Shown in pieces: positions 5,828 through 26,273 of a stretch of 64,000 bases of DNA (positions are counted from its first letter, which is position 1; each line of letters begins with the position of its first letter). A model generated the notes under the pieces. That model ran no database searches. It had not been told where the DNA came from and worked only from the letters and a program-made list of their open reading frames with translations. This DNA is from Oscillospiraceae bacterium (GTDB lineage: Bacteria > Bacillota > Clostridia > Oscillospirales > Oscillospiraceae), in assembly GCA_017622995.1 (NCBI GenBank), contig JAGAQA010000024.1, positions 6,272 to 70,271 on the forward strand. The letters run 5' to 3'. Made by a program: the position numbers and the translations under genes.

Positions 5828-5830
5828 TGC

Positions 5831-5856
5831 TTCAGCCGCCTTTTCAGGCGGCTGAA
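5831..5856 (+). terminator. Hairpin terminator
   Basis: ttcagccgcct-tttc-aggcggctgaa directly after the stop. Confidence 0.75.
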
Positions 5857-7604: not shown

Positions 7605-8176
7605 TGACTATGGATTTCTGGGGCCATCTGAAAACCGTGGCGCACCACCGGGCGCTGGTGTGCCAGGGCTGCTTCCGGGTAGGGCTGTACCGTCAGGGGC
7701 TGACCCACGACCTGAGCAAATTCTCTCCCACAGAGTTCTGGCAGGGGGTCAAATACTACCAGGGAACCCGCAGCCCCAATGCGGCGGAGCGTGAGGAAAA
7801 GGGCTACAGTCAGGCCTGGATGCACCACAAGGGCCGCAACAAGCACCATTATGAATACTGGACGGATCTGAGCCTGGCCACCCGCCGGTATGAGCCGGTG
7901 GAAATGCCCAGAAAATACCTGGTGGAAATGGTGATGGACCGCCGGGCCGCCTGCATGACCTATGAGGGAAAGCATTACAATCCGGGTTCTGCCCTCCGGT
8001 ATTTTGAAAAGAGCCGGGAGCGGCTGCTGATGCACCCCAATACGGAAAAAGAGCTGGGGTATCTGCTGACCATGCTTCGGGATCAGGGGGAGGAAGAGAC
8101 CTTCCGATACATCCGGGAATCCGTGCTGAAGAACAAACCCTTCCCATGGGAAGAAACAAGCGGAGGCCGCGTCTAG
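7604..8176 (+). CDS. DUF5662-family (HD-like) protein
   Basis: HLKTVAHHR, HDLSKFSPTEF, AWMHHKGRNKHHYEYW and EMVMDRRAAC motifs; coupled to the prfC stop. Confidence 0.75.
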   Translation: MTMDFWGHLKTVAHHRALVCQGCFRVGLYRQGLTHDLSKFSPTEFWQGVKYYQGTRSPNAAEREEKGYSQAWMHHKGRNKHHYEYWTDLSLATRRYEPVEMPRKYLVEMVMDRRAACMTYEGKHYNPGSALRYFEKSRERLLMHPNTEKELGYLLTMLRDQGEEETFRYIRESVLKNKPFPWEETSGGRV

Positions 8177-8270
8177 CGGCCTCCCGTTGCGTTTCCGGTA
8201 CAATCGGCTTTACAAAGAATCCCCCAGCCGTTATAATGAAAGCAAAATGACCCGGGAAGGAATGGGTTCG

Positions 8271-10067: not shown

Positions 10068-10110
10068 CAAATACCGCCCCTTTCGGGGCGGTCCAATAAA
10101 ACAGTTTAAC
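10061..10110. repeat. attL of the integrative element
   Basis: aataacaaataccgcc-CCCTTT-cggggcggtccaataaaacagtttaa; core CCCTTT (10078-10083) is repeated at 26254-26259, and the inner arm is inverted relative to attR. Confidence 0.85.
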
Positions 10111-10140
10111 AATTGTTTTCGGGAAACGGCATGATTTCGG

Positions 10141-12086
<1,946 letters not shown>

Positions 12087-12122
12087 AAAAATTATCCTTT
12101 CATTTTTAGTGATGGGGAAGGA

Positions 12123-13598
12123 TCAGATTTCCTTCTCTTGTTTTTGTGTGGGAGCATTGATTTGTATGGGCTCAATATTCTTTCGGGCGGTATCGATATG
12201 GGACTTGATTTTCCAAAGAGTCTGGGACTCTGCTCGGATTGCTTTGAACTCACTGTAGGTTGCATCGTGCTGCTGTTCCAGTGCTGCATAACGGCTCTGG
12301 ATTGCTTTGCTGTTGTATTTACCGTCGGGGAAATACTTGGTCAGCAGCCGATTGGCAGCATAGAACTGATTCAGTTCTGCCTTGTGCTCGGCTTTATATT
12401 TCTCCTTGGCTTTTGTGAATTTGATGCTGCGTACTTTGTCCGCAACAGGCTTCAACCGCTTGTAAGTATCCCAGGCATCCGGAAGTTTCTGAAGATCTTT
12501 CATCTCTGTGGTTTGGATATCCAGCTGCGTTTTCTTTTCATCCACGATGCTGCGTCTCTCGGAAATAAAAGCTTCCAAAGATTCCACATCGGTGATGCCA
12601 TTCTCCTGCAGGAAAGTGATGATCTCGCTGAGTTCCTTCAGGTTGTTGGCTCTGGCTTTTTGGCTGTAAGCGCTGGCATTGCGCTGATTGAAGTAAATCT
12701 GTAGCAGCGAAATCAGATCAGGAGTCTGGGGCTTGCTCAGTTCTTCCTTTGTTTCTTTCAGCCAGTCCAGCAGAACGGCAATCTTCTTCCGGATACTCTG
12801 GATCAGCCCATTGGTAGCCTTGATCCAACGGTTGAACTCACCTTTGTCGGTGCGTATACCCTTGGCTTCCATTTGACGGACAGAAGGACCTTCATGGATG
12901 GTAGGAAGAATATCCACACCCTGTCGTTCATAGCTGCGGTGGTCAATGCGTTCTGGTAATCCCTTTTCCTCAAACTTGGCATTGCACAGAGCTGCCCATT
13001 GCTCCCGCCAGTATTCAAGCGTTTCCGGACTGCCCCAGTCGGTTGTGGGAACTGCGTTGAAAATGTAATTACCCTCAGCATCCAGAAGACGTATTCCGTT
13101 TTCATCCAATTCATAAACACGTCGCTGCTTCATGCCCCATTTTCCGTTTCCCTCGATGGGGCGAATTGGAGCCATCACATGAAAATGGGGATTGGAGATT
13201 CCGCCAGGTTCTGTGTCCGGAACATGAATAGCGAAGTCTACCACCATGCCCCGACTGACAAAATGCTCCAATAAAAACTGCCTTGCAAGGGCGATGTTCT
13301 CGTCCAGGGAGAACTCATTTTGCAAGGCAATGTCAAAGCTGTATGCCAGCTGGGCTCGTTTACCCCGCTCGACTTTTTCTACGGCATTCCAGAGAGTCTG
13401 TCGGTCAGCATACTCCCTGGGAGCGTGAGCAGGCAGCAGGATTTCGGAAAAGATCACACCATGCTTCTTTGTGTAATCGGATGTCTCGCCGTAGTATTCG
13501 CTGTATAGTTTTTCTCCGGCCCGGTAAGCGGCGGCAGCGATGGCAGACTGTCCTTTGCTCCGCTTAATCTGTGTGACATTCAGATGAAACAGTGCCAA
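12123..13598 (-). CDS. MobA/MobL (MOBQ) relaxase
   Basis: ALFHLNVTQIKRSKGQSAIAAAAYRAG, DFAIH..NPHFHVM and IDHRSYERQG motifs; TTG start after AGGAGG. Confidence 0.92.
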   Translation of the reverse strand: MALFHLNVTQIKRSKGQSAIAAAAYRAGEKLYSEYYGETSDYTKKHGVIFSEILLPAHAPREYADRQTLWNAVEKVERGKRAQLAYSFDIALQNEFSLDENIALARQFLLEHFVSRGMVVDFAIHVPDTEPGGISNPHFHVMAPIRPIEGNGKWGMKQRRVYELDENGIRLLDAEGNYIFNAVPTTDWGSPETLEYWREQWAALCNAKFEEKGLPERIDHRSYERQGVDILPTIHEGPSVRQMEAKGIRTDKGEFNRWIKATNGLIQSIRKKIAVLLDWLKETKEELSKPQTPDLISLLQIYFNQRNASAYSQKARANNLKELSEIITFLQENGITDVESLEAFISERRSIVDEKKTQLDIQTTEMKDLQKLPDAWDTYKRLKPVADKVRSIKFTKAKEKYKAEHKAELNQFYAANRLLTKYFPDGKYNSKAIQSRYAALEQQHDATYSEFKAIRAESQTLWKIKSHIDTARKNIEPIQINAPTQKQEKEI

Positions 13599-13908
13599 TA
13601 GGCGGTTCCTCCTTTTCGTGATTTTGAATTGCGGACTGGATCGCCTGCTGGACACTGGGCAGGCAGAGAATGGTTTCCATCAGCTCATTGACTTCCGGAA
13701 GTGTCAACTTCTTGATATCCGGTGCGATACTCTCAATCGTTCCGGCAATGGTGCAAAGACGGTGGGTGCGTTTCTTCCGATCAGCTTTTTCGTAATAAGA
13801 TTTGCGGTTTTCCAGCCGCTGCTGATTATGCTGAAGCTGTTGCAACTTCTGTTCCACGCTGGCCTGTTCTTCTTGGAGCTTTATTAGCTCCGGGTTAGAT
13901 TGATACAT
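13564..13908 (-). CDS. DUF3847-like relaxase accessory coiled-coil protein
   Basis: RLENRKSYYEKADRKKRTHRLCTIAGTIES, typical of the small gene preceding MobA/MobL. Confidence 0.75.
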   Translation of the reverse strand: MYQSNPELIKLQEEQASVEQKLQQLQHNQQRLENRKSYYEKADRKKRTHRLCTIAGTIESIAPDIKKLTLPEVNELMETILCLPSVQQAIQSAIQNHEKEEPPIGTVSSECHTD

Positions 13909-14105
13909 AAAATAAACCTCCTTTGATTGTCGTTTTGATGAAAGAAATAGGGAACAAATATGGTTCGTCAGAACCGTGTTTGTTCCCTATTTGGGCAAGG
14001 ATAGATGCGAAGCATCGCAAGGGGTGCAGCCCTTTGTACGGAACGCAAGTGACGCATCCCAGTTCAACATTCGGATGTTGTAATCGGGGCAGCTCCGCAG
14101 GACGC

Positions 14106-14143
14106 ACTACATGGTCACTGACCATGTATAGAAGTGCGCCCTT
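14106..14143 (+). promoter_or_regulatory. MOBQ-type origin of transfer (oriT/nic)
   Basis: Inverted repeat tacatggtca-c-tgaccatgta followed by GAAGTGCGCCCT, matching the RSF1010-type nic consensus AAGTG^CGCCCT. Confidence 0.8.
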
Positions 14144-14492
14144 AGTTCCTAAGGGTTTTCTCCCATGCTTCTCCATTTTTCGCTTTCTCTCGCTTCTTCC
14201 CATCGTATTTACCCCACAGGCCGTTTTCTTTTGCCCATCTCCGGGCATTGCTTCTTCGTTCCTCACTGTACGGAGCTGTCAACCGGATGCTGATTCTATC
14301 TTTGGCAATGTCAAACCGCAGACCGCCCTGTTCATCATCCTCGGTAAGCTGACAAAGCTGCGGATATTTTTCTGCGTATTCCAACAGCCGCCGCTTCAGC
14401 TTCGTATCGTGGGTGTAAATCTCAGCCATGGGGTCTTTTGCGTTGTAATAAAGCTCCGTGACCTTCTGCTTTTTCGTAAGACCTGTTTTCAT
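14142..14492 (-). CDS. Conserved hypothetical protein of clostridial mobile elements
   Basis: YNAKDPMAEIYTHDTKLKRRL...GGLRFDIAKDRISIRL; AGGAGG RBS. Confidence 0.7.
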   Translation of the reverse strand: MKTGLTKKQKVTELYYNAKDPMAEIYTHDTKLKRRLLEYAEKYPQLCQLTEDDEQGGLRFDIAKDRISIRLTAPYSEERRSNARRWAKENGLWGKYDGKKREKAKNGEAWEKTLRN

Positions 14493-14643
14493 GGAATTTC
14501 CTCCTTTTTTCGTAGATTTTTCCCGGCTCTTGAATTGGGAAAGAGGGGTGATTTTCTGACAGAAATGCTTCGGATGATGCCCAGGTCATTCAATACTGTG
14601 CTATTCGTTGATTCCTGCATTTTCTCAATTCAAGACCGTATTT

Positions 14644-14844
14644 TTACTTGGGTCTGTTGGTGTGGCTGTTCAGCCATTCCAGCAGATCCTTTTTCATCAC
14701 CATTTTCCGTCCCCCGACCCGCAAAGTCGGGAAGTCAGAATGGTTCAAAAGTGCGTAAGCGCCGGACTTGGAAATCTGCAAAGCAGACGCAAGCTGTTCT
14801 GCGGTTATTACATCCGGCAAGCTAGAAAACATCTCATTTGCCAT
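14644..14844 (-). CDS. Excisionase-like helix-turn-helix DNA-binding protein
   Basis: LPDVITAEQLASALQISKSGAYALL...FPTLRVGGRKMVMK (HTH_17-type); GGAGG RBS. Confidence 0.8.
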   Translation of the reverse strand: MANEMFSSLPDVITAEQLASALQISKSGAYALLNHSDFPTLRVGGRKMVMKKDLLEWLNSHTNRPK

Positions 14845-14913
14845 AGTTTTTTCCTCCTTTCTGCATGAAAAAACAGCAGCCACAAAATGTGACTGCTGTC
14901 TAACAATGCGTGT

Positions 14914-15858
14914 TTAGTTGCTCGGTTTGTCCAGATATTTTTGGTATTCCCCGGTGACAAAATCCTCGTAGATGCTGGCAATCTTTGCAATGCGTTTATG
15001 GACAGCACTGGCGGTTTTATAGCCGACCTTGTCCGCAATTTCCTGCTCCGTATGTCCCAGCATCCGAAGTCGCAGGATCTCCTGATCTTTATCCGTCAGC
15101 GTTGACTTTTTGAATGCTTCAATCTGATTTTCGTCCATGATGTCTTTCTCAAATTCCGCCCGGGGATCTGCGATAGCTAACACAGAACCGTCTTCGTTTT
15201 CCATCATCTTATCAAGAGAGATGGATCTTCCGGAACGATTGTGATGCCACTTGCGCATGAAGTCGTTCTTTGGAACACTGAACTTATCATCGTAATCTTC
15301 CGGAGAACGCATTTCCCATGCTGCATCGATTACCGGCTGCCATTGCTGTTCAATAACGATCATGTCTGTCAGATTGCCCACCAGATTTCCAAACTGCTGA
15401 TAGGTCAGCCAGGGAACTTCTGTGCCCATGGGTATATTGTAAAGATTCTGAAATCCTAAGCCATGGGTTTCCAACTTCATTCTCATGTAGGGAATGATCG
15501 CATAAGAAAGCTGCCAGATGGGAGAGTAGCCTGCATAGTTTGGTCGACTTCCCGGAATATCTCTGTAATTTCCGTTGCGTCCCTTCACCTGGAAGAACTG
15601 CCATGCTGCCCAGGAACAGCTGTCCCAAATCAGCAGCTTCATCATGTCGTCTTTCACAATGCGGTCATACTTGTCCGTCCGCAAAACTTCGTAGGGACAG
15701 CGGGGAATTTCCAGAGCGGCGGGGAATTTTTCCACCAGTTCCTTTGGCAGCGCATAAAAGAGTGTCAGCCAGGATTTATCGTCATCCTGCGGGATTTCGA
15801 TGATCTCTCCGGGTAGCACTACGATAAATCCTTTCGGCCCATTACGGGATTCTGTCAC
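14914..15858 (-). CDS. Sigma-70 region-4-containing regulator with an unknown N-terminal domain
   Basis: C-terminal LTDKDQEILRLRMLGHTEQEIADKVGYKTASAVHKRI; GTG start after GGAGGTG. Confidence 0.7.
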   Translation of the reverse strand: MTESRNGPKGFIVVLPGEIIEIPQDDDKSWLTLFYALPKELVEKFPAALEIPRCPYEVLRTDKYDRIVKDDMMKLLIWDSCSWAAWQFFQVKGRNGNYRDIPGSRPNYAGYSPIWQLSYAIIPYMRMKLETHGLGFQNLYNIPMGTEVPWLTYQQFGNLVGNLTDMIVIEQQWQPVIDAAWEMRSPEDYDDKFSVPKNDFMRKWHHNRSGRSISLDKMMENEDGSVLAIADPRAEFEKDIMDENQIEAFKKSTLTDKDQEILRLRMLGHTEQEIADKVGYKTASAVHKRIAKIASIYEDFVTGEYQKYLDKPSN

Positions 15859-16062
15859 GTTATTTCACCTCCTGATTTTAATAGTAGAGTTACCCCCCTA
15901 CTATATATGGCATGAGAAAGGCCAAATTGTTCCAATGTTTCTAAAAATTTTTCATAATTTTTTTGAAGCCAATATCTGCAATCATTATAGCGAAACTTGG
16001 AAATCATATCCAGTCGAAAAGTGTGGATAAAAATTGAACTTTCTGTATCTGTCCATCAAAAG

Positions 16063-16100
16063 AAATAAGGCGGTGACCGGGATGGTCACCGCCCCTATTT
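16063..16100 (-). terminator. Terminator after the giant surface-protein gene
   Basis: aaataaggcggtgacc-ggat-ggtcaccgcccctattt. Confidence 0.7.
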
Positions 16101-16129
16101 GTTCCCAGGACTAAAACAGCTTCTTCAAA

Positions 16130-19100
16130 TTAATGTATTCTTTTCTTGTTATCAGTCAAAAGAATTGCCACACCAAGAACACTTCCACACAGGATACTGC
16201 TCCACAGCACAAGCTGGAAGTCGTCTCCGGTCTTGGGGTTGGTGGGGTCTGCTTTCGCAGTGCTGATTTTCTTGAAGGTTGCGGTTACGGTCACATCAGC
16301 ATCAGGCATGGTGAAATAGTATTTGCCGTTATTGTCTGTGCTGACCACATAGGATTTGCCAGCAGCATCCTTCACGGTCAGGGTAGACAACTTGTAACCG
16401 GACTTGGGAGTTACTGTAATGGCAACTTCTGTTCCTTCGGCAGCTTTGCTGACATTGGTGGTCACAGAGCCGTTGGTGGTATCCGCAATCTTTACGTTGT
16501 GCTTCTGCTTCACGGTCAGCTTACCTGCAACATAGGCGATGCTGTAGTTGTCACCAGCCTGAGCATTGCTGGGAGTAATGGCATAGTCGCCAGGCTTGCT
16601 CATATCAACAGTACAAGTCATGGTGGGGGCTGTGGTCAGTTTGTCAGTCCCCTTCAGACCGGTGACAGTGTAAGTAAAGGCAGGCTTAGCATCACCCTCT
16701 ACAGCGGTCTTATCTTCCGCAGTAATGGTCACAGCAGCCTTGGCAATGGTGAAGTTCAGCGTGGTCTCACCGGCGAGGGTCTCGTGGGTTTCCGGAATGG
16801 TGATCTTCACGCTGTAGGTACCGGCATTGGTGGGCGCGGTGGTGCTGGGGCCATAGGTGGTGTTACCGGTGCCGGTGTAGATCACATCAAATGTTCCGGT
16901 ATAACCCTGCACTGCGGGAGTTCCGGTGTAACCAGCCTGCGCGTTGCCGGAATAGGTCAGACCGCTGGCTGCGGTGACACCGGTAATAGTTACTGTTGCC
17001 TTGTTGGTACGCTTGACGGTGATGGTGGCATTGGAAACGGTGAAGTTGTCCGTGGTGAAGGAAATGGTGATGGTACCGAAGCTGCCTTCCTCACTGTTGT
17101 TCATGCTCCGGACCGGCACAGACAGAACGTCGTCGGTGATGGTCGGTGCTGCGCTGTTGTAGCCCTGAAGGTCATAGGCCGCAACTGTATAGGACACATC
17201 ACCATAGCTCTTTCCGGTTTCCAGAGCGGGCAGCAGTTCAGCCAGATCCACGTTGTAGGTCTTTGCCAGACGGTTGGTGATGGTCAGTTCACCATTTTCT
17301 GCGGTGGCGCTGGCTTTGGTGATGTTCACGGTGACACCGGTGGGCTGTGCAGTCAGCGTGTAGTTGGCAGCGTCAGCACCATCCAGCGCAACGCCGGTGA
17401 TGGTGACGGCCTTGCCGTTGCCCACATTGGCATCTGCAGTGTTAGCAACTGCTTTGCTCAGGTCAACAGAAACAGTATCGCCGGAAATCACGCCATTCAC
17501 AACGCCGCCGGTCAGGGCTACCACGGTAGTGCCGTTGTATGCACGATTGGTGGCAGTGATGCTGGAAACAGTGACTTCCTTGGGAGCAACAGCAACGATC
17601 AGATTTACTTCCACGGTGCTGTAGTTGGACGTATCACCGGGTGTGAAGATAGCGGGGAAGGTGTTATTGCCATTCACATCACCAACGGGGGTATTGCTGG
17701 CCTTCCATGCCCAACCAGTGGGCAGGGGGATGCCTGCCAGAGTCTGACCATAAGTTGCAGTCAGGCCGGTGGGGGTAGAGTAGCTGGGCTCAGCCTTACC
17801 GATGCTCCAGGTCTTGGTTGCCGTGCCGGTGAAGTTACCGTTGCCGGTAACGGTCAGGGTATAGGTTCCAACATTGGTGCCGGTATTGCCGGAGATGGTG
17901 TAGTCATCGACTACCACATCGCCAACCTTGATTTCTGTCACTGTCTGGTTCTTCTCTTCGCCGGTATAGGTCAGAGCGGCACCCAGGGTGATGGTGGCAC
18001 CGGTGATGTCCCGCTTGGAAATGGTAATGGGATTGCTGGTCACACTGGAAGCTTCGGTATTTGCAGTCTCCGCAATGGAAGCCACCACATAGTAGGTGCC
18101 AGCATCCTTGGGTGCGGCAGTCAGCTTGTTGGCTTCGTCCACAGAATCCTTGTACCAGGTGAAGGTCACATCGGCGTAGGCTGCGCCGGAGATGGTCAAC
18201 TCACCTTCGGTGGGATTTGCCAGAGGCTGAGCGTCATAGGTCTTGCCGGGGGCATATCCATTATAGGTGATGGAGGTGTTGGCCTTATTGATAATCAGGT
18301 CACCATCCGCATAGGAAATTGCGTAGTTGGTGGTCACGTCCTTGTCGCCGTTCTTGATCACGGCATTGCTGGGCGTGATTTTACCATTGGTGGTGGCATT
18401 GGTGGTGCTGGGAGTCAGGGTCGCGGTGATGCTGTGACCATCGATCAAACCGGTATTCGTAATCTTGGTGCTGTCCAGAACTTCGCCATAGGTAATCTGC
18501 TGATTATCTGCCTTGATGGTTAACTCCTTTTGGTTGACGGTATACTCTGCGGAAATGATCTTATCGGTATCCACGGTCAGGCTTGCCTTGTAGATGCCTG
18601 CATCAGTGGGAGCAGTGGGAGTTGCGGCGTTCCAGGTATCGCCGTCCTTCTTCTGATACTGAATCAGGTCGGACAGATTCGTGAGATCACCAACGGGTTC
18701 TGCGGTCAGAGCTGCGGTCTTTGCCGTGCCGTCATAAGTGGCATTGGATGCGGAGATGGTCACGGTGCCGCCAGCAGTGTTGGGGCAGCTGCTGTCCCCA
18801 TTGGCGCAGGTTGCGGTGATGGTATCCTTTGCCTCGTTGACGGAGTAAGTCCAGCTGTGCACATGAGAAATCACAGTAACTTCCTTGGTCTTGCTGAGGG
18901 CATTGCTGGTTGCCTTAACGGTCAGCTTGGTGCCATTGGGAACGTTTACGGGAACGGTCAGTTTGCCGTCTGCGCCGATGGTTACACCATCATGGCCGGT
19001 AACGCTCCAGGTAACCGCGGATGGTACGGCTGCGCCGTAGATATCCTCACCGGTGATGGTGTAGGTGCCGGTCTGGGGTTCGGTCTTGCCGGACAGGGAG

Positions 19101-22100
19101 ATGCTGTCGGGGCCGGTGATCTCACCCAGCGCGGTCAGGACACCGACGTTCGCCTTGGTCAGGGTGATTTCGATTTCACCGGTCTTATCGCCGTAGGTGG
19201 CAGTGGCCTTGATGGTGCCTGCAGCCGCTTCGGGAGTAAGGGTAATAACGTTGCCCTCGATGCTGACACCGGTGTAATTCTCTGCCAGATTCCAGGTGGC
19301 ATCCTCGGTCACATCCACATCTTCGCCGTAGGAATAATCTGCCATAGCAGTCAGAGTGACAATCGTGGAATTATCCTTAGTGGGAACGGCCACGGAGCCG
19401 GTGGAATCGGCGGTGACGGTAATGCTGTTCAGCACATTCTCAATGATGTAGGTGACGCTGATTTCTGCCGTGCCTAGTGTGATAGTTGCGGTGTAGGTAC
19501 CAGGATTCACAGGTTTGCCTTCAATCAGACCGTCACCGGAGTAAACCACGGTATGTTCGGGAGTCAGATTATCCGTGACCTTGGCTTCGATGGCACTGCC
19601 GGTGTAAGACACACTGTCGGGAACAGCAATGCTGATGCTGCCGCCATTGGTATCGGGGCAGCTGCGGTCCTCATTGGAGCAAATTGCGGTAATGGTGTCG
19701 CCGTCAGCGGAGTATTCCCAATCATGGCTGTGTTCTGGAATATTAAATTGCAGTTCCTTAGTTCCGGTATAGTTACCTTCGCCAGTGATTGTCATGGTTG
19801 CAGTGCCAGGCGTGGTATTGTTAGCATATTCAAGGGTATAGTCGATATCCTTTACAAGGGTCATACCGTTATACTGAATGGTAACATCGGGTGTAGCCAC
19901 ACCGCCGATCAGAGGATAGCTATCCTCTAAATCGTAAGTCAAATCTCCGATATCCTTGGCTGCAATGGTGAGCGTAACGGCCTCTCTGCCATTTCGCAAC
20001 ATGATCGTCTTCTCGGTGTAATAGTCGCTCTCCGCAACACTGATCGAGATGGCATAGCTACCCACGTCGGTAGGAGGCGTATCACTGTTGTTATACAGAA
20101 CCTTAACTGCGCCAACATATGCAGCTATCGTGTCCACAGGAGTAACCGTTACGGACTTCGATGTTCCGTCATAAATAACGGTGGTGGCAGAATCGTAAGC
20201 AAAATCTGCATAAGAAAGAGAACCTTTGATAATCTCAAACTCACAGCTTGCAGTTGCCGTTCCAAGCGTAATGCTTGCAACATAAACACCGGGAGCAAAA
20301 GGTGTTGCTACTTCGTCCGTGGATTTCAGCGTGTAAACAATTTCGGGAAGTACGACATCTTCAATCGTACCGGAAATTGTCGCGGCTTTAACTGCATTGT
20401 TGAAAACCAATCCCCCTCTTCCACTGGACGGCGCTTTAATTGTAATGCTCTGTTCCGGATCGCCACACGCACCGTCTGTATTTGCGCAGGTTGCGGTAAT
20501 GGTGGCACCTTCTGCAGAGTATTCCCATTCATGTTTATGATCGAAAACTACTCTGAGATTCTCTTGTAAATAATCCACCGTCGCATCTACATTGTTGTTA
20601 TCATCATCTACAAATTTATATCCTTCTGCTAACAAACCGGAGAGAGGATAACCACTTAGAGAAGTACTGCGAATACCATTAATAAAGTAACCGCCGGACA
20701 AGGTGATTTTTGAAGTGTGATAAGATGCTTGTCTGTATATTGCATACAGGCCACCATCAAGTGTACCGCCACTGATGATTATCTCGGAATTTGCATCCTC
20801 GACCTGAATTGCATTTAAGGTAGATTTGAGCGTTCCTCCGGTCATCACAAAGGTGCCTTCAACGTAGTTGCATTGATAGTTTCCTTCCACAAAACCGCTA
20901 TTCAGAGTGAGCTTTGCACCTTCCGTAATGCTATGCTGATAAGTAATCAGAAGTTTACCCGCCTGTTCTGATGTACTATCCTTGATGGTTAAATCTGCAT
21001 CAGAGACATAGTATAGACTTTTGATCGTCGCAGATTTGCCGTTTAGGTCGAGTGTGATTGCCTTTGCAGGGAAAAATATAGTAGCATCGCTTGTTGAATC
21101 GGCAGTTAACTTCATTTCAACCGCATCACTTCCGGACAGATTCGTGACATATTCGACTGCCGATATAATGTCCTTATAATGAGTTGTGCTTCCGTTTACG
21201 GTTACCGATACAACAGCTACATACGCATCGCATACGGAGCAGATGCCTGTTGCAGCATCAAAGGTACACGCATCTGTAAGCGTCAAGTTGCACTCCGTGC
21301 AAGTGTATGTATGCTGACAATTTGCAGTTGTATACTCGGTGTGCGTGCTGCCTGCATGGTCGCAAACTGTCACGGCACAAGTTGCGGTATACTCTCCGTC
21401 CTTAGTGGTGACGGTGATGGTAGCTGTGCCTTTGCTTACGCCGGTAACAACACCGTTTACAACCGTTGCTATCGAATTATTATCAGATGTCCAAGTAACA
21501 GTTTTGTCATTAGCGTGTTCGGGAGTTACGGTTGCAGTCAAAGTGACAGTTTTACCAACACCCACAGTTGCGGTTGTTGGATCAATTATTATGCCCGTGG
21601 CATCAACGCCAAGAGCATTGCTACCATTATAGAATACGGGATGCGTATCAGTGCCGATTGTCTGTCCCCAAACAAGCTCAAGATTTTCTGCTTGTAAGAG
21701 TCTTGCAACAGTTCCGTCGGAAAATGCGGTTGAGTTCTTGCTGGTTGCATTTGAATCCGTGCCCTTACCGCTTAGGAAATAGCAGTTTTTGATAGTTCCT
21801 GAGGATTTGTAGGCAATCGCCTTGCTGTAGGTCGAGTTGCCGGTTGATATCGTTCCGCTGTTAAAGCAATTCGAGACCGTTGCGTTGCTCTTCAAACAAC
21901 CGGAGATGCCGCTTACATACCAACTCGTAGAAGAGCCGCCCGAAACTGCTCCGGTGTTGTAACAGTTGTTGATGGCTGCTCCGTAGGATAGTCCTTCGAT
22001 ACCGCCAACATAAACCTGGGCACTTGAACCTGTATTTGTGCTTTTTACAGTTCCGGTATTATAGCATTTTGAAATCAGGCTTTCGCCATAACCGGAAATA

Positions 22101-24100
22101 CCGCCAATGTTTTTGGGACCGGAAATGGTTCCGCTGTTGGAGCAGTTTACAATACCGCCTTTAGATTTGCTAGAAGTTGTGTTATATCCGCAGATGCCGC
22201 CTGCAGAGTCAGTACTTGCCGTCACATTGCCGCTGTTGGTACAACCTTCAATTTTGCCGTTTGCTTTACCGATTATACCACCAACATACGATTTCGAAGA
22301 AACATTACCAGTGTTTGTGCAGTTGGAAATCACTGCCGCTGAATTGTTAAGCGTTGCGCAAATACCACCAGTTCCGTTTGTTCCGTTACCTTGAATCGCA
22401 CCTGTATTGGTACAATTTGCTATCTGTTTTTGTGACGCACCAAACGAACCACAGATACCGCCTGTATATATTTCACCGATTGTATTTAAATTGCCATTAT
22501 TTTGACAGTTTTCAATATTACCGGTACAGTATGCTGCAATGCCGCCTGCATAAGCGCTACCACTTGAAATAGAAATGGTAATATTTACGTTGTTCGTACA
22601 ATTATAAAAAGATCCAGTAGAGCGAGCGCAAATACCTGCACTACGAGCTGCGGTAGATGAATATGTACCGCTGACGGTGAGATTTTTGATCGTACCGTTC
22701 TCAAGGTATCCAAACAAAGCGGCCGACTTGTGGGTAGTTGAAACGCTGTTAAGACCGCTGATGGTTTTGCCGTTTCCGTCAAAGGTGCCCTTAAAACTTG
22801 CGTATTGTGAAGCGCTTGAACCGTCGTAGTAACCTATCGGCTCCCATGTGCCCCCCGAAATGTCGATATCGTTGCCGAGTTTGTAATGCTTGCTGTAATA
22901 CGATGAGTTTTTGTTATTTACAAACCACGCCAAATCAGCAAGCTGCTGTGCTGTTGTAATAATATAAGGGTCTGCTTCCGTACCGCTGCCCGTCCAGGTG
23001 ATCGTGGGCTTGCTGGTAGGATAAGCCCAGGTGTCCAGCATATCTGCAACACCCAGATCTACTTCCAGTTTCAGGGTGGAAACGCTTACACCCAGAGCAT
23101 AGCCCTCAGGCAGAATAGCTTTCAGTTCGTAAGTACCCTGTCCCTCGCCCTCAGTGGGGAAGGTTTCGCACTCCCACTGTACAGGGATTTCCACTTCTGT
23201 GCCGTCCACCATAGCAGTGATGGCAGAGGGCAGGATGGACTTCAGGGTTTCCCAGTCTGCTGCATTAGGCAGGGTTGCGTAGGTGCCGTCCTCGGAGAGA
23301 ATCTCATATTCATCTACCCAGCTCCATGCGGTGATGGTCAGCACCACAGGCTCCGGGACAGGCTCATCCATGCCGCAAACCTTGCACTTTCCATCCAGAT
23401 ATTCTGCATGGGAGCAGTCTGCACCGCAGGCATCGCACTTGCCGTCGGCATCGGTGCCGTAATTGTGGGCTGCCAGCTCGCCATAGGCAGTTTCGCATTT
23501 TTCGCAGATGGCCTGATCCTTACAGGTAGCCGTGCCACCGGAATGGACGCAAGGCTCTGCTGCGCCGCAAACAGTACACTTGCCCTCGGTATACTCTGCG
23601 TGGTTACAGATTTCACCGCAGCCACATACGCCATCGGTATAGGTATGGGCATGGGGTTCTGCTGCACCGCAGACGGTGCACTTACCCTCGGCATACTCTG
23701 CATGGACACAGACAGCGCCGCAAACTACGCATACACCGTTTTCATAGCTGTGAGCTGCCAGTTCACCATAGGCTGCAGTGCATACTGCGCAAACCGCCTG
23801 TGCTTTGCAGGTAGCTTCGCCACCGGTATGAGCAGCCAGCTCACCATAAGGCTCACCGCATTCGTCGCAGTTAGCCAGAGCGGTACAGGTTGCCGTACCA
23901 CCGGAATGCTGACATTCCTCTGTCACGACAAGCTGGGCCAGATTACAAACAGTGCAGATTCCCTCTGCATTGTAAGTACCCTCGCAGCCCTCAGTGACAG
24001 TACAGGGATCGCCCTCCGCTGCCAGCGCAGGCATGGGCACATAGGACAGTACCATGCTCAGAACCAGCAGGAAAGATAGGATCTTCTTCATGTTTCTCAT
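16130..24100 (-). CDS. Giant (2656 aa) sortase-anchored surface protein/adhesin
   Basis: Signal peptide MKKILSFLLVLSMVLSYVPMPALA; Cys/His repeats; Ig-like domain; GLUG-type GSGTEADPYII/GGICG repeats; Big_2; MBG/YDG-like stalk; C-terminal NPKTG plus TM plus KKRIH. Confidence 0.88.
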   Translation of the reverse strand: MRNMKKILSFLLVLSMVLSYVPMPALAAEGDPCTVTEGCEGTYNAEGICTVCNLAQLVVTEECQHSGGTATCTALANCDECGEPYGELAAHTGGEATCKAQAVCAVCTAAYGELAAHSYENGVCVVCGAVCVHAEYAEGKCTVCGAAEPHAHTYTDGVCGCGEICNHAEYTEGKCTVCGAAEPCVHSGGTATCKDQAICEKCETAYGELAAHNYGTDADGKCDACGADCSHAEYLDGKCKVCGMDEPVPEPVVLTITAWSWVDEYEILSEDGTYATLPNAADWETLKSILPSAITAMVDGTEVEIPVQWECETFPTEGEGQGTYELKAILPEGYALGVSVSTLKLEVDLGVADMLDTWAYPTSKPTITWTGSGTEADPYIITTAQQLADLAWFVNNKNSSYYSKHYKLGNDIDISGGTWEPIGYYDGSSASQYASFKGTFDGNGKTISGLNSVSTTHKSAALFGYLENGTIKNLTVSGTYSSTAARSAGICARSTGSFYNCTNNVNITISISSGSAYAGGIAAYCTGNIENCQNNGNLNTIGEIYTGGICGSFGASQKQIANCTNTGAIQGNGTNGTGGICATLNNSAAVISNCTNTGNVSSKSYVGGIIGKANGKIEGCTNSGNVTASTDSAGGICGYNTTSSKSKGGIVNCSNSGTISGPKNIGGISGYGESLISKCYNTGTVKSTNTGSSAQVYVGGIEGLSYGAAINNCYNTGAVSGGSSTSWYVSGISGCLKSNATVSNCFNSGTISTGNSTYSKAIAYKSSGTIKNCYFLSGKGTDSNATSKNSTAFSDGTVARLLQAENLELVWGQTIGTDTHPVFYNGSNALGVDATGIIIDPTTATVGVGKTVTLTATVTPEHANDKTVTWTSDNNSIATVVNGVVTGVSKGTATITVTTKDGEYTATCAVTVCDHAGSTHTEYTTANCQHTYTCTECNLTLTDACTFDAATGICSVCDAYVAVVSVTVNGSTTHYKDIISAVEYVTNLSGSDAVEMKLTADSTSDATIFFPAKAITLDLNGKSATIKSLYYVSDADLTIKDSTSEQAGKLLITYQHSITEGAKLTLNSGFVEGNYQCNYVEGTFVMTGGTLKSTLNAIQVEDANSEIIISGGTLDGGLYAIYRQASYHTSKITLSGGYFINGIRSTSLSGYPLSGLLAEGYKFVDDDNNNVDATVDYLQENLRVVFDHKHEWEYSAEGATITATCANTDGACGDPEQSITIKAPSSGRGGLVFNNAVKAATISGTIEDVVLPEIVYTLKSTDEVATPFAPGVYVASITLGTATASCEFEIIKGSLSYADFAYDSATTVIYDGTSKSVTVTPVDTIAAYVGAVKVLYNNSDTPPTDVGSYAISISVAESDYYTEKTIMLRNGREAVTLTIAAKDIGDLTYDLEDSYPLIGGVATPDVTIQYNGMTLVKDIDYTLEYANNTTPGTATMTITGEGNYTGTKELQFNIPEHSHDWEYSADGDTITAICSNEDRSCPDTNGGSISIAVPDSVSYTGSAIEAKVTDNLTPEHTVVYSGDGLIEGKPVNPGTYTATITLGTAEISVTYIIENVLNSITVTADSTGSVAVPTKDNSTIVTLTAMADYSYGEDVDVTEDATWNLAENYTGVSIEGNVITLTPEAAAGTIKATATYGDKTGEIEITLTKANVGVLTALGEITGPDSISLSGKTEPQTGTYTITGEDIYGAAVPSAVTWSVTGHDGVTIGADGKLTVPVNVPNGTKLTVKATSNALSKTKEVTVISHVHSWTYSVNEAKDTITATCANGDSSCPNTAGGTVTISASNATYDGTAKTAALTAEPVGDLTNLSDLIQYQKKDGDTWNAATPTAPTDAGIYKASLTVDTDKIISAEYTVNQKELTIKADNQQITYGEVLDSTKITNTGLIDGHSITATLTPSTTNATTNGKITPSNAVIKNGDKDVTTNYAISYADGDLIINKANTSITYNGYAPGKTYDAQPLANPTEGELTISGAAYADVTFTWYKDSVDEANKLTAAPKDAGTYYVVASIAETANTEASSVTSNPITISKRDITGATITLGAALTYTGEEKNQTVTEIKVGDVVVDDYTISGNTGTNVGTYTLTVTGNGNFTGTATKTWSIGKAEPSYSTPTGLTATYGQTLAGIPLPTGWAWKASNTPVGDVNGNNTFPAIFTPGDTSNYSTVEVNLIVAVAPKEVTVSSITATNRAYNGTTVVALTGGVVNGVISGDTVSVDLSKAVANTADANVGNGKAVTITGVALDGADAANYTLTAQPTGVTVNITKASATAENGELTITNRLAKTYNVDLAELLPALETGKSYGDVSYTVAAYDLQGYNSAAPTITDDVLSVPVRSMNNSEEGSFGTITISFTTDNFTVSNATITVKRTNKATVTITGVTAASGLTYSGNAQAGYTGTPAVQGYTGTFDVIYTGTGNTTYGPSTTAPTNAGTYSVKITIPETHETLAGETTLNFTIAKAAVTITAEDKTAVEGDAKPAFTYTVTGLKGTDKLTTAPTMTCTVDMSKPGDYAITPSNAQAGDNYSIAYVAGKLTVKQKHNVKIADTTNGSVTTNVSKAAEGTEVAITVTPKSGYKLSTLTVKDAAGKSYVVSTDNNGKYYFTMPDADVTVTATFKKISTAKADPTNPKTGDDFQLVLWSSILCGSVLGVAILLTDNKKRIH

Positions 24101-24135
24101 AGGCTTATTCCTCCTCGGGAAGATATAAGAGAGGC

Positions 24136-24390
24136 TTACGCCTCAGATTTTACATAGTGGTCAATCAGTTGTGCTCTGGCTGCCTCCGAAGTCACTTCCT
24201 CCGGTGCTCCTGTCAGATAGCGCAGGGCATCATTCCAGACAGAAAAGGGATAGGTTTCGGGCGGTATGGATTCCAGCTTCTTAGCCAGACGACCCTGCTG
24301 ATCCGAATTTACATTTCTCAAATCGCTCAAGAAAGCACAGCCTGCGCTCTCTGCCAGCAGATCAAGCAAGGATTTTCGTTTTTCGGTCAT
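24136..24390 (-). CDS. Small hypothetical protein (84 aa) directly upstream of the giant gene
   Basis: ORF with LLDLLAESAGCAFLSDL, 36 nt before the adhesin start; weak RBS. Confidence 0.6.
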   Translation of the reverse strand: MTEKRKSLLDLLAESAGCAFLSDLRNVNSDQQGRLAKKLESIPPETYPFSVWNDALRYLTGAPEEVTSEAARAQLIDHYVKSEA

Positions 24391-24421
24391 AGAACGACAT
24401 CCAATCGTCGAAAATTTTTAT

Positions 24422-24525
24422 GGGATCAATAGATCCTATAAAGGAAGGGCGCCCTTCCTTTATGATGGTTTGACAGCCACTTATCCTGTTAGTGAGCCTA
24501 ACAGGATAGAGGGGTACCCCTCTAT
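24422..24525. repeat. Cluster of five near-abutting palindromes/hairpins in the 5' leader of the adhesin operon
   Basis: ggatc-aata-gatcc; perfect 26-bp ATAAAGGAAGGGCGCCCTTCCTTTAT; tggtt-tgac-agcca; tatcctgttag-tgagc-ctaacaggata; perfect 20-bp ATAGAGGGGTACCCCTCTAT. Confidence 0.85.
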
Positions 24526-24575
24526 TTTTGCAGATGGACATAATAAGGCATAATACCCTATATTATATCGATAAT

Positions 24576-24604
24576 ATTATACGGTATCAGAATACCAAAT
24601 GCAA
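24576..24604 (-). promoter_or_regulatory. Sigma-A promoter of the small-ORF/adhesin operon
   Basis: Minus-strand TTGCAT-17bp-TATAAT; the spacer contains the palindrome GGTAT-tctg-ATACC. Confidence 0.65.
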
Positions 24605-24612
24605 TTACACTT

Positions 24613-25155
24613 TTAATTATTTTCAATTTTTTCACTTGCATTTTCTGCTGCCACACTTTCAGGCATATGGAAAATATCTTTCTCCGCTATCGTTCCGGCG
24701 GTATACTCTAGAACACAACTGTATTTGGGTGAAACAGTCCAGCAAAGGTAGGTCAGTCCATCTAATTCCCCCTGTACGCCACACCAACTGCCCACTTTGC
24801 AATCGCTGCGGTTTTCAAGGGTGCCAATGTCCACCGCCATATCCAATGCTGTCTTGTTCAGTCCTTCAAGTTCAGATGGTTCCTCGTTGAGATAGGTTGT
24901 GGTACAGCAGTAATAGTTGATGGATACATTGTTAGGACCCTTTATCACAAAGGGTCTTACTTCGGAGATGGATTCCAGTTTCCAATCTTCGTCCACTTCC
25001 TGCAAGGCCGACTGAACCTTGTCTATCTCCTTCGCCGCCTGCCAATATGGATTTTGTTCTCTCCGATAGATTCTATATCCCCACACGATGCCTACGGTGA
25101 TGGCGATCATGGAAATGCAGATAATGATTGCAAATAGAATCTTTTTCTTGGTCAT
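24613..25155 (-). CDS. Hypothetical membrane-anchored protein
   Basis: N-terminal KKK plus TM helix and an acidic soluble domain; ATGA-type overlap with the upstream SLOG gene. Confidence 0.65.
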   Translation of the reverse strand: MTKKKILFAIIICISMIAITVGIVWGYRIYRREQNPYWQAAKEIDKVQSALQEVDEDWKLESISEVRPFVIKGPNNVSINYYCCTTTYLNEEPSELEGLNKTALDMAVDIGTLENRSDCKVGSWCGVQGELDGLTYLCWTVSPKYSCVLEYTAGTIAEKDIFHMPESVAAENASEKIENN

Positions 25156-25634
25156 TCTAAGTCCTCCAAAGGATCATTAAGGTTGATGCGGGGAATACCT
25201 TTCCGCTTTGCGTATTTCATGGTCTGCCATGCTCCGCCGCTTTCATGCTGGACGAAGAAAACAACAAGATCAGAGCGGTCAACCATTTCACGGTTCCTTG
25301 TTTGGTAAGCTCCCTTAAAGTGGCCGCCAGCAGCGGCTCCGCAGATTTCTATTTCATCGTAGTAATCCCGGTAGGCATCCTCGTTGTCCCGGAAGTCTGC
25401 CGTTGGGTATGGCAGCACCCAAACATGGGCGCAGTTATCATCCCGGATCGTGCGCTTGCAGCGGCAAATGGTGGAGGAAACTATCTGGTCAAATTCTCCG
25501 TCCCTGCCTACCAGGAACTCCACATATTCATGTTCCCGCAACAACGTTTGTATGAGCTTGTCCAACCTGCCTTCAATTTCCAATGCATTTTTAATTATGC
25601 GATGTCCAAAGAAGCTGACGGTAAGTGTATTCAA
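25152..25634 (-). CDS. SLOG-superfamily (YpsA/DUF1273-like) protein
   Basis: VSFFGHR, FLVGRDGEFD, VLPY, RNREMVDRSDLVVFFV, SGGAWQTMKYAKRKG; TTG start after AGGGGA. Confidence 0.75.
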   Translation of the reverse strand: MNTLTVSFFGHRIIKNALEIEGRLDKLIQTLLREHEYVEFLVGRDGEFDQIVSSTICRCKRTIRDDNCAHVWVLPYPTADFRDNEDAYRDYYDEIEICGAAAGGHFKGAYQTRNREMVDRSDLVVFFVQHESGGAWQTMKYAKRKGIPRINLNDPLEDLE

Positions 25635-25755
25635 CACGCTATCCCCTAACAATTAGTATACTTGCGTTTATCGTTAAAATTATACGACATAAATGATTAA
25701 ATATCAACGATTTGTCGAAGTATAATTTACGAAGAATACAAGCAAAGGGGTGAGT

Positions 25756-26064
25756 GTGGTGAAGGATATTCTTGCTACCATAACAGAATACCGGGCAGAA
25801 AGAGGATGGACGGAGTATCAGCTTGCAGAACACTCTGGCTTGCCCCAGTCTACAATCTCCTCATGGTATCGTAAGAACATGGTGCCAACAATTCCATCCT
25901 TGGAGAAGATTTGTTCTGCGTTTGGGATTACACTGTCCCAGTTATTTGCCGAAGGCGATGCACCTGTTTCGCTGACTGAATCTCAACGAAAACTGTTAGA
26001 TCGTTGGTCGAGGTTGAGCGAGGAGCAGCAGTCTGTGGTTTTTGCTTTGATCGATAAAATGTAA
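25756..26064 (+). CDS. XRE-family helix-turn-helix regulator
   Basis: RGWTEYQLAEHSGLPQSTISSWYRKNMVPTIPSLEKICSAFGITLSQLF; divergent from the SLOG gene. Confidence 0.88.
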   Translation: MVKDILATITEYRAERGWTEYQLAEHSGLPQSTISSWYRKNMVPTIPSLEKICSAFGITLSQLFAEGDAPVSLTESQRKLLDRWSRLSEEQQSVVFALIDKM

Positions 26065-26065
26065 A

Positions 26066-26113
26066 AAATCCGCCAGTACCGGCACCGTAAGGTGTGCCAG
26101 CACTGGCGGATTT
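26066..26113 (+). terminator. Hairpin after the XRE gene
   Basis: aaatccgccagt...actggcggattt. Confidence 0.6.
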
Positions 26114-26230
26114 CAATCACAATTTGATTTGGATAAAAGAAAAACAAGCGATACCTCGTTCATAATGAACCAGATATCGCTCATTTTTGCTCTTGCACCC
26201 TGCTTGGCAGCTACCCTATGTCGGTAGTTT

Positions 26231-26273
26231 TTATACTGTCTTATTGGAAGCTACCCTTTGGGCGGTATTGTTA
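26231..26273. repeat. attR of the integrative element
   Basis: ttatactgtcttattggaagcta-CCCTTT-gggcggtattgtta; the inner arm is inverted to the attL arm and the outer arm is complementary to the host sequence left of attL. Confidence 0.85.

Follow-up and report, generated by a model that had tools for sequence, protein, structure and literature searches.

Fibrillar adhesins show recombination of their adhesive domains with various stalks (Monzon et al., bioRxiv 10.1101/2020.12.07.414375; PMC9210967, where YDG appears among the stalk domains), and shuffling of this kind has been put forward as a source of new adhesins ('Domain shuffling ... drives adhesin generation'; Barringer et al. 2023, PMC10952558). 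The giant surface protein gene P0001, found in the 64,000-nucleotide stretch of Oscillospiraceae DNA analyzed here (the window), encodes a protein resembling these adhesins in its signal peptide, distal non-repeat head, YDG/MBG/Big_2 stalk and C-terminal wall anchor, and its relatives likewise carry heads on different stalks. P0001 differs in having a GLUG β-helix as head, compared with the CshA/PAD fold of fibrillar adhesins. In the fibrillar-adhesin papers, domain architectures serve to infer shuffling over deep time, and the words 'recombination', 'horizontal' and 'mobile' do not appear in the text, whereas the exchange in P0001 appears to be recent, with nt identity of up to 100%, and is mapped to the base, crosses bacterial families and lies on an integrative mobilizable element (IME). 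Periscope proteins have the same stalk domain families (PF18676 and PF18657 listed; Whelan et al., bioRxiv 10.1101/2020.12.24.424174), but vary in the copy number of near-identical tandem repeats, while P0001 alleles vary in module identity. A periscope reading of P0001 was rejected, as the four alleles are all 2,653-2,656 aa long, the HxHxW units share 54-61% nt identity and variation in number is restricted to the Cys-rich units at the N-terminus.

Polymorphic toxin loci (CdiA-CT, Rhs) attach variable modules to a constant part, and the joins lie at short conserved motifs such as VENN and PxxxxDPxGL. P0001 and its relatives have in common with these loci a constant scaffold, swappable modules, short conserved peptides exactly at the borders and spread on mobile DNA, but the variable part is internal and resembles a binding head, the genome carries no orphan modules and there are no immunity genes. 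Block-wise ancestry, with the anchoring part kept and the receptor-binding part exchanged, is also found in mosaic surface genes of naturally transformable streptococci (PspA, PspC, Zmp) and in phages that swap tail-fiber or tailspike heads. Unlike these examples, P0001 belongs to a gut host with a genome of 55.6% GC, has an IME as its likely carrier and points to a donor lineage ~20% GC apart. No new principle is involved, since shuffled adhesin domains and mosaic surface genes are both known already; the locus is an unusually clear natural example of adhesin modules being shuffled, with a constant secretion signal, stalk and anchor and differing heads, in which one head was apparently imported recently across this GC gap on mobilizable DNA.

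The P0001 product is very probably a fibrillar-adhesin-like surface protein in three parts (Table 1). The N scaffold consists of the signal peptide, Cys-rich repeats and an Ig-like domain with a LEVDLG end; the head of a GLUG β-helix, Big_2, a Cys linker, a second β domain and one HxHxW-capped stalk unit; and the C scaffold of an HxHxW-capped MBG/YDG stalk, an InlB B-repeat and an NPKTG sorting signal. Pfam matches are to MBG_2, Big_2, YDG, Flg_new_2, MBG_3 and Glug, with stalk-type domains exceeding the Pfam cut-offs (YDG 60 bits, MBG_2 68, MBG_3 29.5, Big_2 63.7) and Glug matched at aa 604-627 (24.8 bits; cut-off 20.5). The first-pass annotation, made from the sequence alone, had named GLUG and Big_2 (aa 834-910) and had placed the three HxHxW repeats correctly (aa 1188, 1457 and 1746; 20539, 19732 and 18865). 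The signal peptide is 85-100% conserved across 13 related proteins, while the number of Cys-rich repeats varies between alleles, P0003 and P0005 having one additional ~33-aa unit compared with the window allele. The putative sortase-type wall anchor at the C-terminus comprises NPKTG (aa 2621-2625; an xPxTG variant that differs from canonical LPxTG), a hydrophobic span and a KKRIH tail, and at least 10 sortase homologs are encoded in the genome.

Table 1 Coordinates of the predicted mobile element, the P0001 gene and its modules in the window (aa positions refer to P0001).
Feature	Position	Strand	Basis or remark
Predicted integrative mobilizable element, ~16.2 kb, carrying the adhesin gene	10078-26256		recombinase, relaxase, composition, homology ends
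Large serine recombinase (Resolvase + Recombinase + Zn_ribbon_recom + DUF4368)	10141-11871	-	at element end
MobA/MobL relaxase	12123-13655	-	E = 5e-84
Complete giant surface protein gene P0001	16130-24100	-	single open frame, 2,656 aa; predicted to be secreted and wall-anchored
Signal peptide, aa 1-27, MRNMKKILSFLLVLSMVLSYVPMPALA	24020-24100	-	taken from translation
Cys-rich repeat region, aa 28-245, 30 Cys	23366-24019	-	part of N scaffold
Ig-like 'LTITAWSWVDEY...LEVDLG' domain, aa 246-350	23051-23365	-	last part of N scaffold
GLUG right-handed β-helix, aa 351-826, eight GGIxG rungs	21623-23050	-	Pfam Glug, AF2, Foldseek
GSGTEADPY motif, aa 371-379	22964-22990	-	β-helix N-cap
Head tract, probably exchanged, aa 380-1456	19733-22963	-	compositionally foreign, P0006-like
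Big_2 Ig-like domain, aa 834-910	21371-21601	-	Pfam E = 1.5e-17
Seven-Cys linker and second all-β domain, aa 911-1187	20540-21370	-	single-sequence AF2
HxHxW unit 1, HKHEWEYS...TITATC...C, from aa 1188	20423-20539	-	
HxHxW unit 2, HSHDWEYS..., from aa 1457	19616-19732	-	3' crossover, start of C scaffold
HxHxW unit 3, HVHSWTYS..., from aa 1746	18746-18865	-	within stalk
MBG/YDG-type stalk, aa 1457-2534	16499-19732	-	Pfam YDG, MBG_2; patchwork of allele ancestries
InlB B-repeat (Flg_new_2, aa 2535-2612), then sorting signal	16133-16498	-	

P0003, P0004 and P0005 are alleles at the same locus as P0001, with collinear flanks (95-98% identity) carrying the identical ORF set (84, 180, 161/166 and 314 aa). 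Homology of all three to the window gene is confined to nt 1-1049 (98.6% nt identity over nt 1-692 for P0003 and P0005) and nt 4369-7971, with no nt homology between these segments detected by blastn. Coverage by P0006 is complementary (nt 1076-4376, 89%). Shared scaffolds are thus paired with different cores, as the first-pass annotation had anticipated, and the alleles are not collinear full-length homologs across the block. P0006 comes from a ~35% GC bacterium (flanks of the gene 33-36% GC) and encodes a protein with an SLH anchor and a different signal peptide, of which the head is the N-terminal part. Its neighboring genes bear the labels Acutalibacteraceae or Ruminococcus, and a chromosomal neighbor has its best relatives in another family (f18, not f1); the P0006 host belongs to a different family of the same order as the window host. 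These alignments show that the ancestry of the head differs from that of both scaffolds, and the head has retained the low synonymous GC of the P0006 lineage.

At the 5' junction, the window gene is near-identical to P0008 through GSGTEADPY and P0006-like from the next codon, where P0008 diverges. At the 3' junction, the window gene follows P0006 in the alignment as far as ...NIPE and P0003/P0005 from CACAGCCATGATTGG on. Both junctions are in frame, and they lie just after GSGTEADPY and at the first codons of HxHxW unit 2, where the breakpoints had been expected. The suggestion that recombination occurred at conserved repeats holds for the position of the crossovers, less so for homology as their driver: the three intragenic HxHxW repeats have only 54-61% DNA identity to one another (exact runs ≤14 nt), and identity to the closest known donor at the 3' junction is 57-62%. 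Junction-motif homology between the available representatives is short, so that a motif-driven crossover is only a possibility.

The scaffolds also show more than one ancestry. The Ig-like LEVDLG domain is closer to P0010 (95.8% nt identity) than to P0003/P0004 (86.6%), which marks it as a separate ancestry patch; homology to P0003, P0004, P0005 and P0010 ends at aa 349-353, and the end of this domain is a recurrent 5' breakpoint of the family. The C scaffold matches P0003 over aa 1516-1854 (96.7%) and P0004 over aa 1868-2656 (97.7%), with low-identity patches between. Within the head, nt identity to P0006 is 96-100% over aa 664-1173, which argues for a recent exchange, 79-93% over aa 359-663 and 62-81% over aa 1294-1458, the fall from 96-99% to 87% occurring at ~aa 1174, just ahead of HxHxW unit 1. 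Such patchiness suggests that the head may have been assembled stepwise or in a third lineage. A region-restricted protein search identified no carrier of the whole head besides P0006, and a locus search with the head as query gave nothing close among genome contigs and a match of only 33% in JGI metagenomes. The closest other sequence to the head, among 5.8 billion clusters, is 89% identical. Searches of 301 family genomes and 41 genus genomes gave only domain-level matches (30-48%) and no ortholog of P0001.

It is highly likely that the resident head of an IME-borne adhesin gene was replaced by one from a ~35% GC lineage. Foreign-head DNA would have arrived by horizontal transfer, both gene families being located on or beside mobilizable elements: genes adjoining relatives of P0001 encode relaxases, an integrase, an excisionase-like HTH_17 protein and RecT/YqaJ, and P0006 is adjoined by Mob_Pre, TnpV and a transposase. 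Replacement of the resident head would have taken place through a double crossover. Chimeras would presumably fold only if joined at domain borders, so that those seen would be joins of this type, with border motifs contributing microhomology at most, and the chimera could then spread via ordinary homologous recombination in the scaffolds and movement of the element. The likely outcome would be a change in the binding target of the cell, with secretion, stalk length and wall anchoring held constant.

Transfer in the opposite direction, into the P0006 lineage, or acquisition by both lineages from a third of intermediate GC, seems rather unlikely. Either would fit the fourfold GC3 of P0006, which is 0.38 in the homologous head part vs 0.26 in the rest of the gene, making the low-GC origin of the head a relative one, as well as the mobility genes beside P0006 and the uneven identity between the two heads (62% to 100%). 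However, GC3 of the window head is far nearer to the P0006 background than to that of the element (0.50-0.60) or host (0.73-0.87), in P0006 the head directly follows the signal peptide without a scar, and it is the window gene that carries an extra junction piece, VADMLDTWA, in common with allele P0008.

Module exchange extends across the family. Across fifteen related proteins, six types of head and at least four of tail occur in varying combinations, together with three N-termini: head H1 is paired with an NPKTG tail and with an SLH tail, head H4b with three tails and either of two N-termini, and tail B1 with four different heads. The HxHxW-C...C mini-domain comes after the head in 4/6 head types. 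The junctions of the window gene lie at the motifs, as predicted, but family breakpoints are scattered, lying also at other domain borders and inside domains. It is possible, though we regard it as tentative, that gut Oscillospirales maintain a combinatorial adhesin 'kit' on mobile elements, with short connector motifs (the LEVDLG linker plus GSGTxxDPY N-cap, and the HxHxW-C...C mini-domain) as universal junctions. Heads would then pass from one bacterial family to another without loss of reading frame or foldability, the connectors would do for surface proteins what conserved demarcation motifs do for polymorphic toxins, and binding could be retargeted at strain level inside a community. With its six heads and at least four tails, the family is tractable for asking whether connectors keep swaps in frame and foldable.

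Sharp borders flanked by motifs, the many head types on one scaffold, the serine recombinase in the element and RecT/YqaJ beside one relative might instead indicate programmed cassette switching within the cell, of the pilE/pilS or vlsE type or site-specific at HxHxW/GSGT. This is very improbable, as a whole-genome six-frame search identified no silent head copies (best paralogue 39-40% protein identity), which points to mosaicism by gene exchange and not to a programmed switch. The divergence and short exact runs of the intragenic motifs, the identical allele in three samples and the scatter of family breakpoints also count against it, and the serine recombinase, located at the element end, is built like a typical large integrase. 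Of the 'cassette-shuffling system' initially proposed, module exchange is thus retained, while the genome has no silent cassettes and no dedicated recombinase is implicated.

The genome is in 66 contigs and may be a MAG, and both junctions are at short conserved motifs, where a metagenome assembler could have joined reads of two organisms. Such an assembly chimera is less likely still, because metagenomes of three different samples (ERZ28654709, ERZ28654753 and ERZ28019245) contain exactly this mosaic, on a 145-kb scaffold, an 8.8-kb MEGAHIT contig and a 10.2-kb scaffold. At least two assembly pipelines recovered the 2,656-aa protein in identical form, and the 145-kb scaffold is 99.93% identical to the window at nt level (10 mismatches over 14 kb). 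With the closest other head only 89% identical, no co-assembled source is known, and the in-frame junctions likewise argue against an artifact.

Base composition changes sharply within P0001. The five 60-mer counts sampled in the first-pass annotation are exact (38, 36, 21, 17 and 32 G+C of 60), and the low-GC block it placed at ~19740-22975 maps to 19733-22963 (3.2 kb). GC in sliding windows is ~55-58% at 16550-19700, ~40-49% at 19700-23000 and ~56-58% at 23000-24050, and GC3 in 100-codon windows is 0.30-0.45 for aa 450-1300 vs 0.60-0.74 for aa 1500-2450. Among the long ORFs of the genome, 1.5% of 100-codon windows have GC3 ≤0.40. The codon-usage check that had been proposed gave fourfold-degenerate-site GC of 0.40 in the head (aa 380-1456), 0.52 in the N scaffold (Fisher p = 0.003 vs head) and 0.65 in the C scaffold (p = 2e-19). 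The dip is carried by synonymous sites and amino-acid composition does not account for it, but the block is not uniform, GC3 being 0.50-0.57 near aa 650-750 and ~0.52-0.54 for aa 1300-1450. That no exchange occurred, and that alleles diverged in place with the dip reflecting an Asn/Ser/Gly/Ile-rich β-helix, is scarcely credible: the head is richer than the N scaffold in N (7.3%), S (10.5%) and I (7.3%), and GC at codon positions 1+2 is lower there (0.47 vs 0.50-0.56), but the drop from 0.65 to 0.40 is at fourfold sites, which are independent of amino-acid content, the alternative β-helix head of P0004 has a fourfold GC of 0.54, the P0006 head, 96-100% identical over aa 664-1173, lies in a gene with unrelated flanks, and the alleles lack nt homology across the head.

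The β-helix model (AF2; pLDDT 84.2, pTM 0.86) has as top Foldseek matches 3n6z (BACOVA_03286) and N-domains of IgA1 proteases (S. pneumoniae 6xja/7jgj, G. haemolysans 7uvk), with probability 1.0 and TM-scores of only 0.32-0.39; GLUG and GGIxG rungs are common to these proteins and P0001. An IgA1 protease/M26 reading of P0001 was rejected because it has no Peptidase_M26 Pfam match or M26 domain, no HExxH motif anywhere in the protein and low TM-scores; the β-helix domain alone is shared. The 'catalytic' option offered for the core in the first-pass annotation fails likewise, the protein giving no peptidase or glycosidase Pfam match. Further Foldseek matches are to PfbA (4mr0, 3zpp; PMC3718772), SRRP-type β-helices (L. 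reuteri SRRP, 5ny0) and tailspikes. PfbA and SRRP resemble P0001 in having a right-handed β-helix as distal module of a sortase-anchored protein, but similarity to them is low (E ~1e-2, 9-12% identity) and P0001 has no serine-rich repeat stalk. PDB sequence matches to the head are confined to the Big_2 domain, and the second β domain (aa 905-1190) is all-β in a single-sequence AF2 model with a pLDDT of 48.7, too low to interpret. An adhesive role for P0001 is suggested by its architecture and predicted fold, although GLUG, which with Big_2 makes up the head, is not an established adhesive domain. Attachment of gut commensals to mucus, food particles and each other differs by strain and is thought to decide colonization, and the genes behind it are mostly unannotated giants; this locus supplies defined head/stalk boundaries for expression of heads and a search for ligands.

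The 16.2-kb element has the gene content of an IME, with its own integrase and relaxase and without its own conjugation apparatus, as no T4SS or coupling-protein families were found within it. Its other ORFs are the adhesin gene, HTH_17, DUF3847 and small ORFs without matches. Homology to elements in genomes G327 and G322 (backbone, right end) starts at 10078 and ends at 26256, and at both ends fourfold GC3 steps from 0.50-0.60 in the element backbone to 0.73-0.87 in flanking chromosomal genes. The serine recombinase, MobA/MobL relaxase and this compositional step agree with the IME originally proposed as carrier. A search for a clean empty insertion site in congeners yielded none, the flanks being ~18 kb apart in G304. 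The locus is evidence that adhesins travel as cargo on small IMEs. Two other species of the genus have a backbone with 79-88% identity to this one, and in one of these sister species it carries a sugar-utilization operon instead of the adhesin gene.

P0001, the giant surface protein of the window, is a mosaic carried on a mobile element: its head is of foreign, block-wise and recent ancestry with junctions at defined positions, and throughout its family heads are paired combinatorially with other segments. Streptococci, polymorphic toxins and phage tail fibres provide well-known examples of mosaic surface genes and of receptor-binding heads that can be exchanged. Domain shuffling has been published as a source of fibrillar adhesins from domain architectures, with recombination, horizontal transfer and mobile elements not addressed (PMC10952558). 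The locus described here belongs to a new, uncharacterised family and shows the shuffling process with unusual clarity.

The first-pass annotation had reported a change of base composition within the gene from five 60-mers, whose GC counts were reproduced exactly on recount, and had correctly placed the GSGTEADPY motif (aa 371–379) and three HxHxW units (from aa 1188, 1457 and 1746). The sliding GC profile has a trough of 40–49% at about 19,700–23,000, with ~55–58% on either side, and the dip sits in synonymous positions (GC3 0.30–0.45 for aa 450–1300 versus 0.60–0.74 for aa 1500–2450, 100-codon windows); GC3 of 0.40 or less occurs in just 1.5% of such windows from long ORFs across the whole genome. 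Counting fourfold-degenerate codon families alone, which removes the effect of amino acids, separates four compositional layers in and around the gene: chromosomal neighbours (0.73–0.87), element backbone genes (0.50–0.60), the N and C scaffolds (0.52 and 0.65), and the head (aa 380–1456; 0.40), which is lower than either scaffold (Fisher p = 2e-19 versus C, 0.003 versus N).

Judged from its domains, P0001 is laid out as a fibrillar adhesin of head, stalk and anchor. A signal peptide is followed by a repeat region with 30 Cys, Pfam matches to Glug (aa 604–627), Big_2 (834–910) and Flg_new_2 (2535–2612), as well as to MBG_3, YDG (a stalk marker in PMC9210967) and MBG_2, and a C-terminus with NPKTG, a hydrophobic span and KKRIH in that order; the genome encodes 10 or more homologues of sortase. 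The AF2 model of aa 351–830, made with an alignment of six head types, is a right-handed β-helix with an N-terminal helical cap (pLDDT 84, pTM 0.86). Its top PDB matches in Foldseek are the GLUG β-helices of BACOVA_03286 (3n6z) and of streptococcal/Gemella IgA1 proteases, followed by polysaccharide-active β-helices, tailspikes and the adhesins PfbA and SRRP. P0001 lacks an HExxH motif, and none of its Pfam matches is to a peptidase or glycosidase. The number of Cys-rich units differs among alleles (one extra, of about 33 aa, in P0003, P0004 and P0005; fewer in P0008, P0012, P0018 and P0124), and a 100-N scaffold gap in the relative locus L036 lies inside this region, so these repeats also disturb assembly.

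Table. Locations of features in the window and of related loci.
Feature	Location	Strand	Remarks
Host-like genes, left	8187–10067
Element (IME)	about 10,078–26,256		limits drawn from elements of two congeners, homologous in the backbone and at the right end
Large serine recombinase	10141–11871		downstream of adhesin gene
MobA/MobL relaxase	12123–13655		downstream of adhesin gene
Adhesin gene (P0001)	16130–24100	-	single uninterrupted ORF, 2,656 aa
Foreign tract	19733–22963	-
Cys-rich region	23366–24019	-	30 Cys in 218 aa
84-aa ORF	24136–24390	-	directly upstream of adhesin gene; no Pfam match
Right end kept in G327 IME	26133–26256		about 120 bp
Host-like genes, right	from 26271 onward
G327 IME (L041)	G327:C82:25500–40063		compared with window 10078–16063
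Further MobA/MobL genes, window's genome	G000:C58:32602–34072; G000:C33:2671–4093		70–71% nt identity to window relaxase
Second giant surface protein, window's genome (L002, L003)	G000:C44:82643–85027		1,945-aa open frame
P0010 element genes	L032 12956–16383		downstream of adhesin
P0006 mobile genes	L027 106–4205		1.7–5.8 kb from P0006

A search of full-length P0001 against 5.8 billion protein clusters yielded two informative kinds of relative. P0003, P0004 and P0005 (2,653–2,655 aa) are alleles of the window locus, since the flanks on their contigs align collinearly to the window with 95–98% nt identity and carry the same 84-, 180-, 161/166- and 314-aa ORFs. In blastn they match only gene nt 1–1049 and 4369–7971, and protein identity is just 10–50% across aa ~355–1455; identical flanks thus pair with different cores, as had been proposed. 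P0006 (2,522 aa), with a signal peptide unlike that of P0001 and SLH domains at its C-terminus, matches only gene nt 1076–4376 (89% overall), so that the same core is also paired with unrelated flanks. Nucleotide identity to P0006 is 79–93% for aa 359–663, 96–100% for aa 664–1173, 87–96% for aa 1174–1293 and 62–81% for aa 1294–1458. P0006 contigs have 40% GC overall and 33–36% in the flanks; neighbouring genes are labelled Acutalibacteraceae or Ruminococcus sp. (NCBI), and the best relatives of its chromosomal neighbour belong to f18, another family within the order, rather than to f1, the family of the window. Neither result named beforehand as refuting the mosaic was obtained: full-length homologues were not collinear with uniform identity across the low-GC block, and amino-acid composition did not explain the dip.

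On the 5′ side, homology to P0003/4/5 and P0010 ends at LEVDLG (aa 349–353). The next 29 codons (VADMLDTWAYPTS.PTITWTGSGTEADPY) are common to the window and allele P0008, almost base for base; after the ...DPY codon the window takes the P0006 pattern and P0008 diverges. On the 3′ side, the window is P0006-like through ...NIPE and near-identical to P0003/P0005 starting at the codon for the first His in HSHDWEYS. These junctions delimit the foreign tract, which essentially coincides with the block first annotated at 19740–22975; the 96–100% block shared with P0006 stops just short of the first HxHxW unit. Both scaffolds are also patchworks of allele ancestry, closest to P0003/P0005 over gene nt 1–692 (98.6% nt identity), P0010 over aa 186–353 (95.8%; P0003, 86.6%), P0003 over aa 1516–1854 (96.7%) and P0004 over aa 1868–2656 (97.7%), giving at least five ancestry blocks in the gene.

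The earlier proposal of carriage on an IME holds, on recombinase, relaxase, element ends and related backbones in congeners. Between the recombinase and relaxase genes and the adhesin gene lie an excisionase-like HTH_17 ORF and a DUF3847 ORF. In G327, a sister species, the cargo of a related backbone is an ABC sugar transporter, α-amylase and LacI regulator in place of the adhesin, with relaxase, serine recombinase and 311/314-aa ORF at 79–83% nt identity. The adhesin gene was absent at the DNA level from all 40 congeners searched, and adhesin relatives adjoin other relaxases, a tyrosine integrase, MobL, RecT/YqaJ and a resolvase. The additional MobA/MobL genes suggest several related mobilizable elements in the window's genome. 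The P0010 element encodes YqaJ exonuclease, DUF932, RecT annealase, resolvase and ParE toxin; the RecT/YqaJ pair, which could promote recombination at short homologies, is not present in the window's element. Near P0006 are a Mob_Pre relaxase, TnpV and a Mutator-type transposase, so both known carriers of its head type (H1) adjoin mobile DNA.

DNA with a foreign head would have arrived by horizontal transfer and a double crossover would have swapped out the resident head, with later spread presumably by homologous recombination in the scaffolds and by element transfer. The three intragenic HxHxW units share only 54–61% DNA identity and nowhere match exactly for more than 14 nt in a row, and P0006 and the window are only 57–62% identical around the 3′ junction; on the sequences compared, the motifs thus offer no more than microhomology. 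An explanation by selection, favouring chimeras whose joins fall at domain borders, is no less likely than crossover caused by the motifs. A programmed switching system was rejected, as no silent-cassette archive was found in the genome. Assembly artefact is made very unlikely by an identical protein in three assemblies from separate samples: ERZ28654709 (145-kb scaffold; 10 mismatches over 13,971 nt), ERZ28019245 (8.8-kb MEGAHIT contig; 100% identical) and ERZ28654753 (10.2-kb scaffold). For the head exchange itself, composition favours, short of proof, transfer from a low-GC lineage into the window gene; the P0006 head is itself GC-richer than the rest of its own gene (fourfold GC3 0.38 versus 0.26), and only two H1 carriers, the window gene and P0006, are known.

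Ten further proteins carry the N scaffold, in a search limited to that scaffold. Comparing segments of 15 proteins distinguished six head types (at least 77% identity within and at most 41% across types, except P0009, a divergent H4b relative at 57–61%), at least four tail types (NPKTG; three NPFTG/NPSTG subtypes; NPNTG; SLH) and three N-termini. Head H1 occurs on two different tails, head H4b with three tails and two N-termini, and tail B1 with four different heads. LEVDLG is the recurrent 5′ border, and a HxHxW-C...C unit directly follows the head in four of six head types; other breakpoints fall where stalk domains join or even within β-helices, so the motifs are favoured, not exclusive, borders.

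The second giant surface protein of the same genome has GLUG and YDG regions 38–39% identical to P0001. The 84-aa ORF occupies the equivalent position in nine relatives' loci (L026, L029, L030, L031, L032, L033, L036, L045 and L046), is present in every allele with upstream sequence, including those that have another tail type and lie on another mobile backbone (P0008, P0010), and seems to travel together with the N scaffold.
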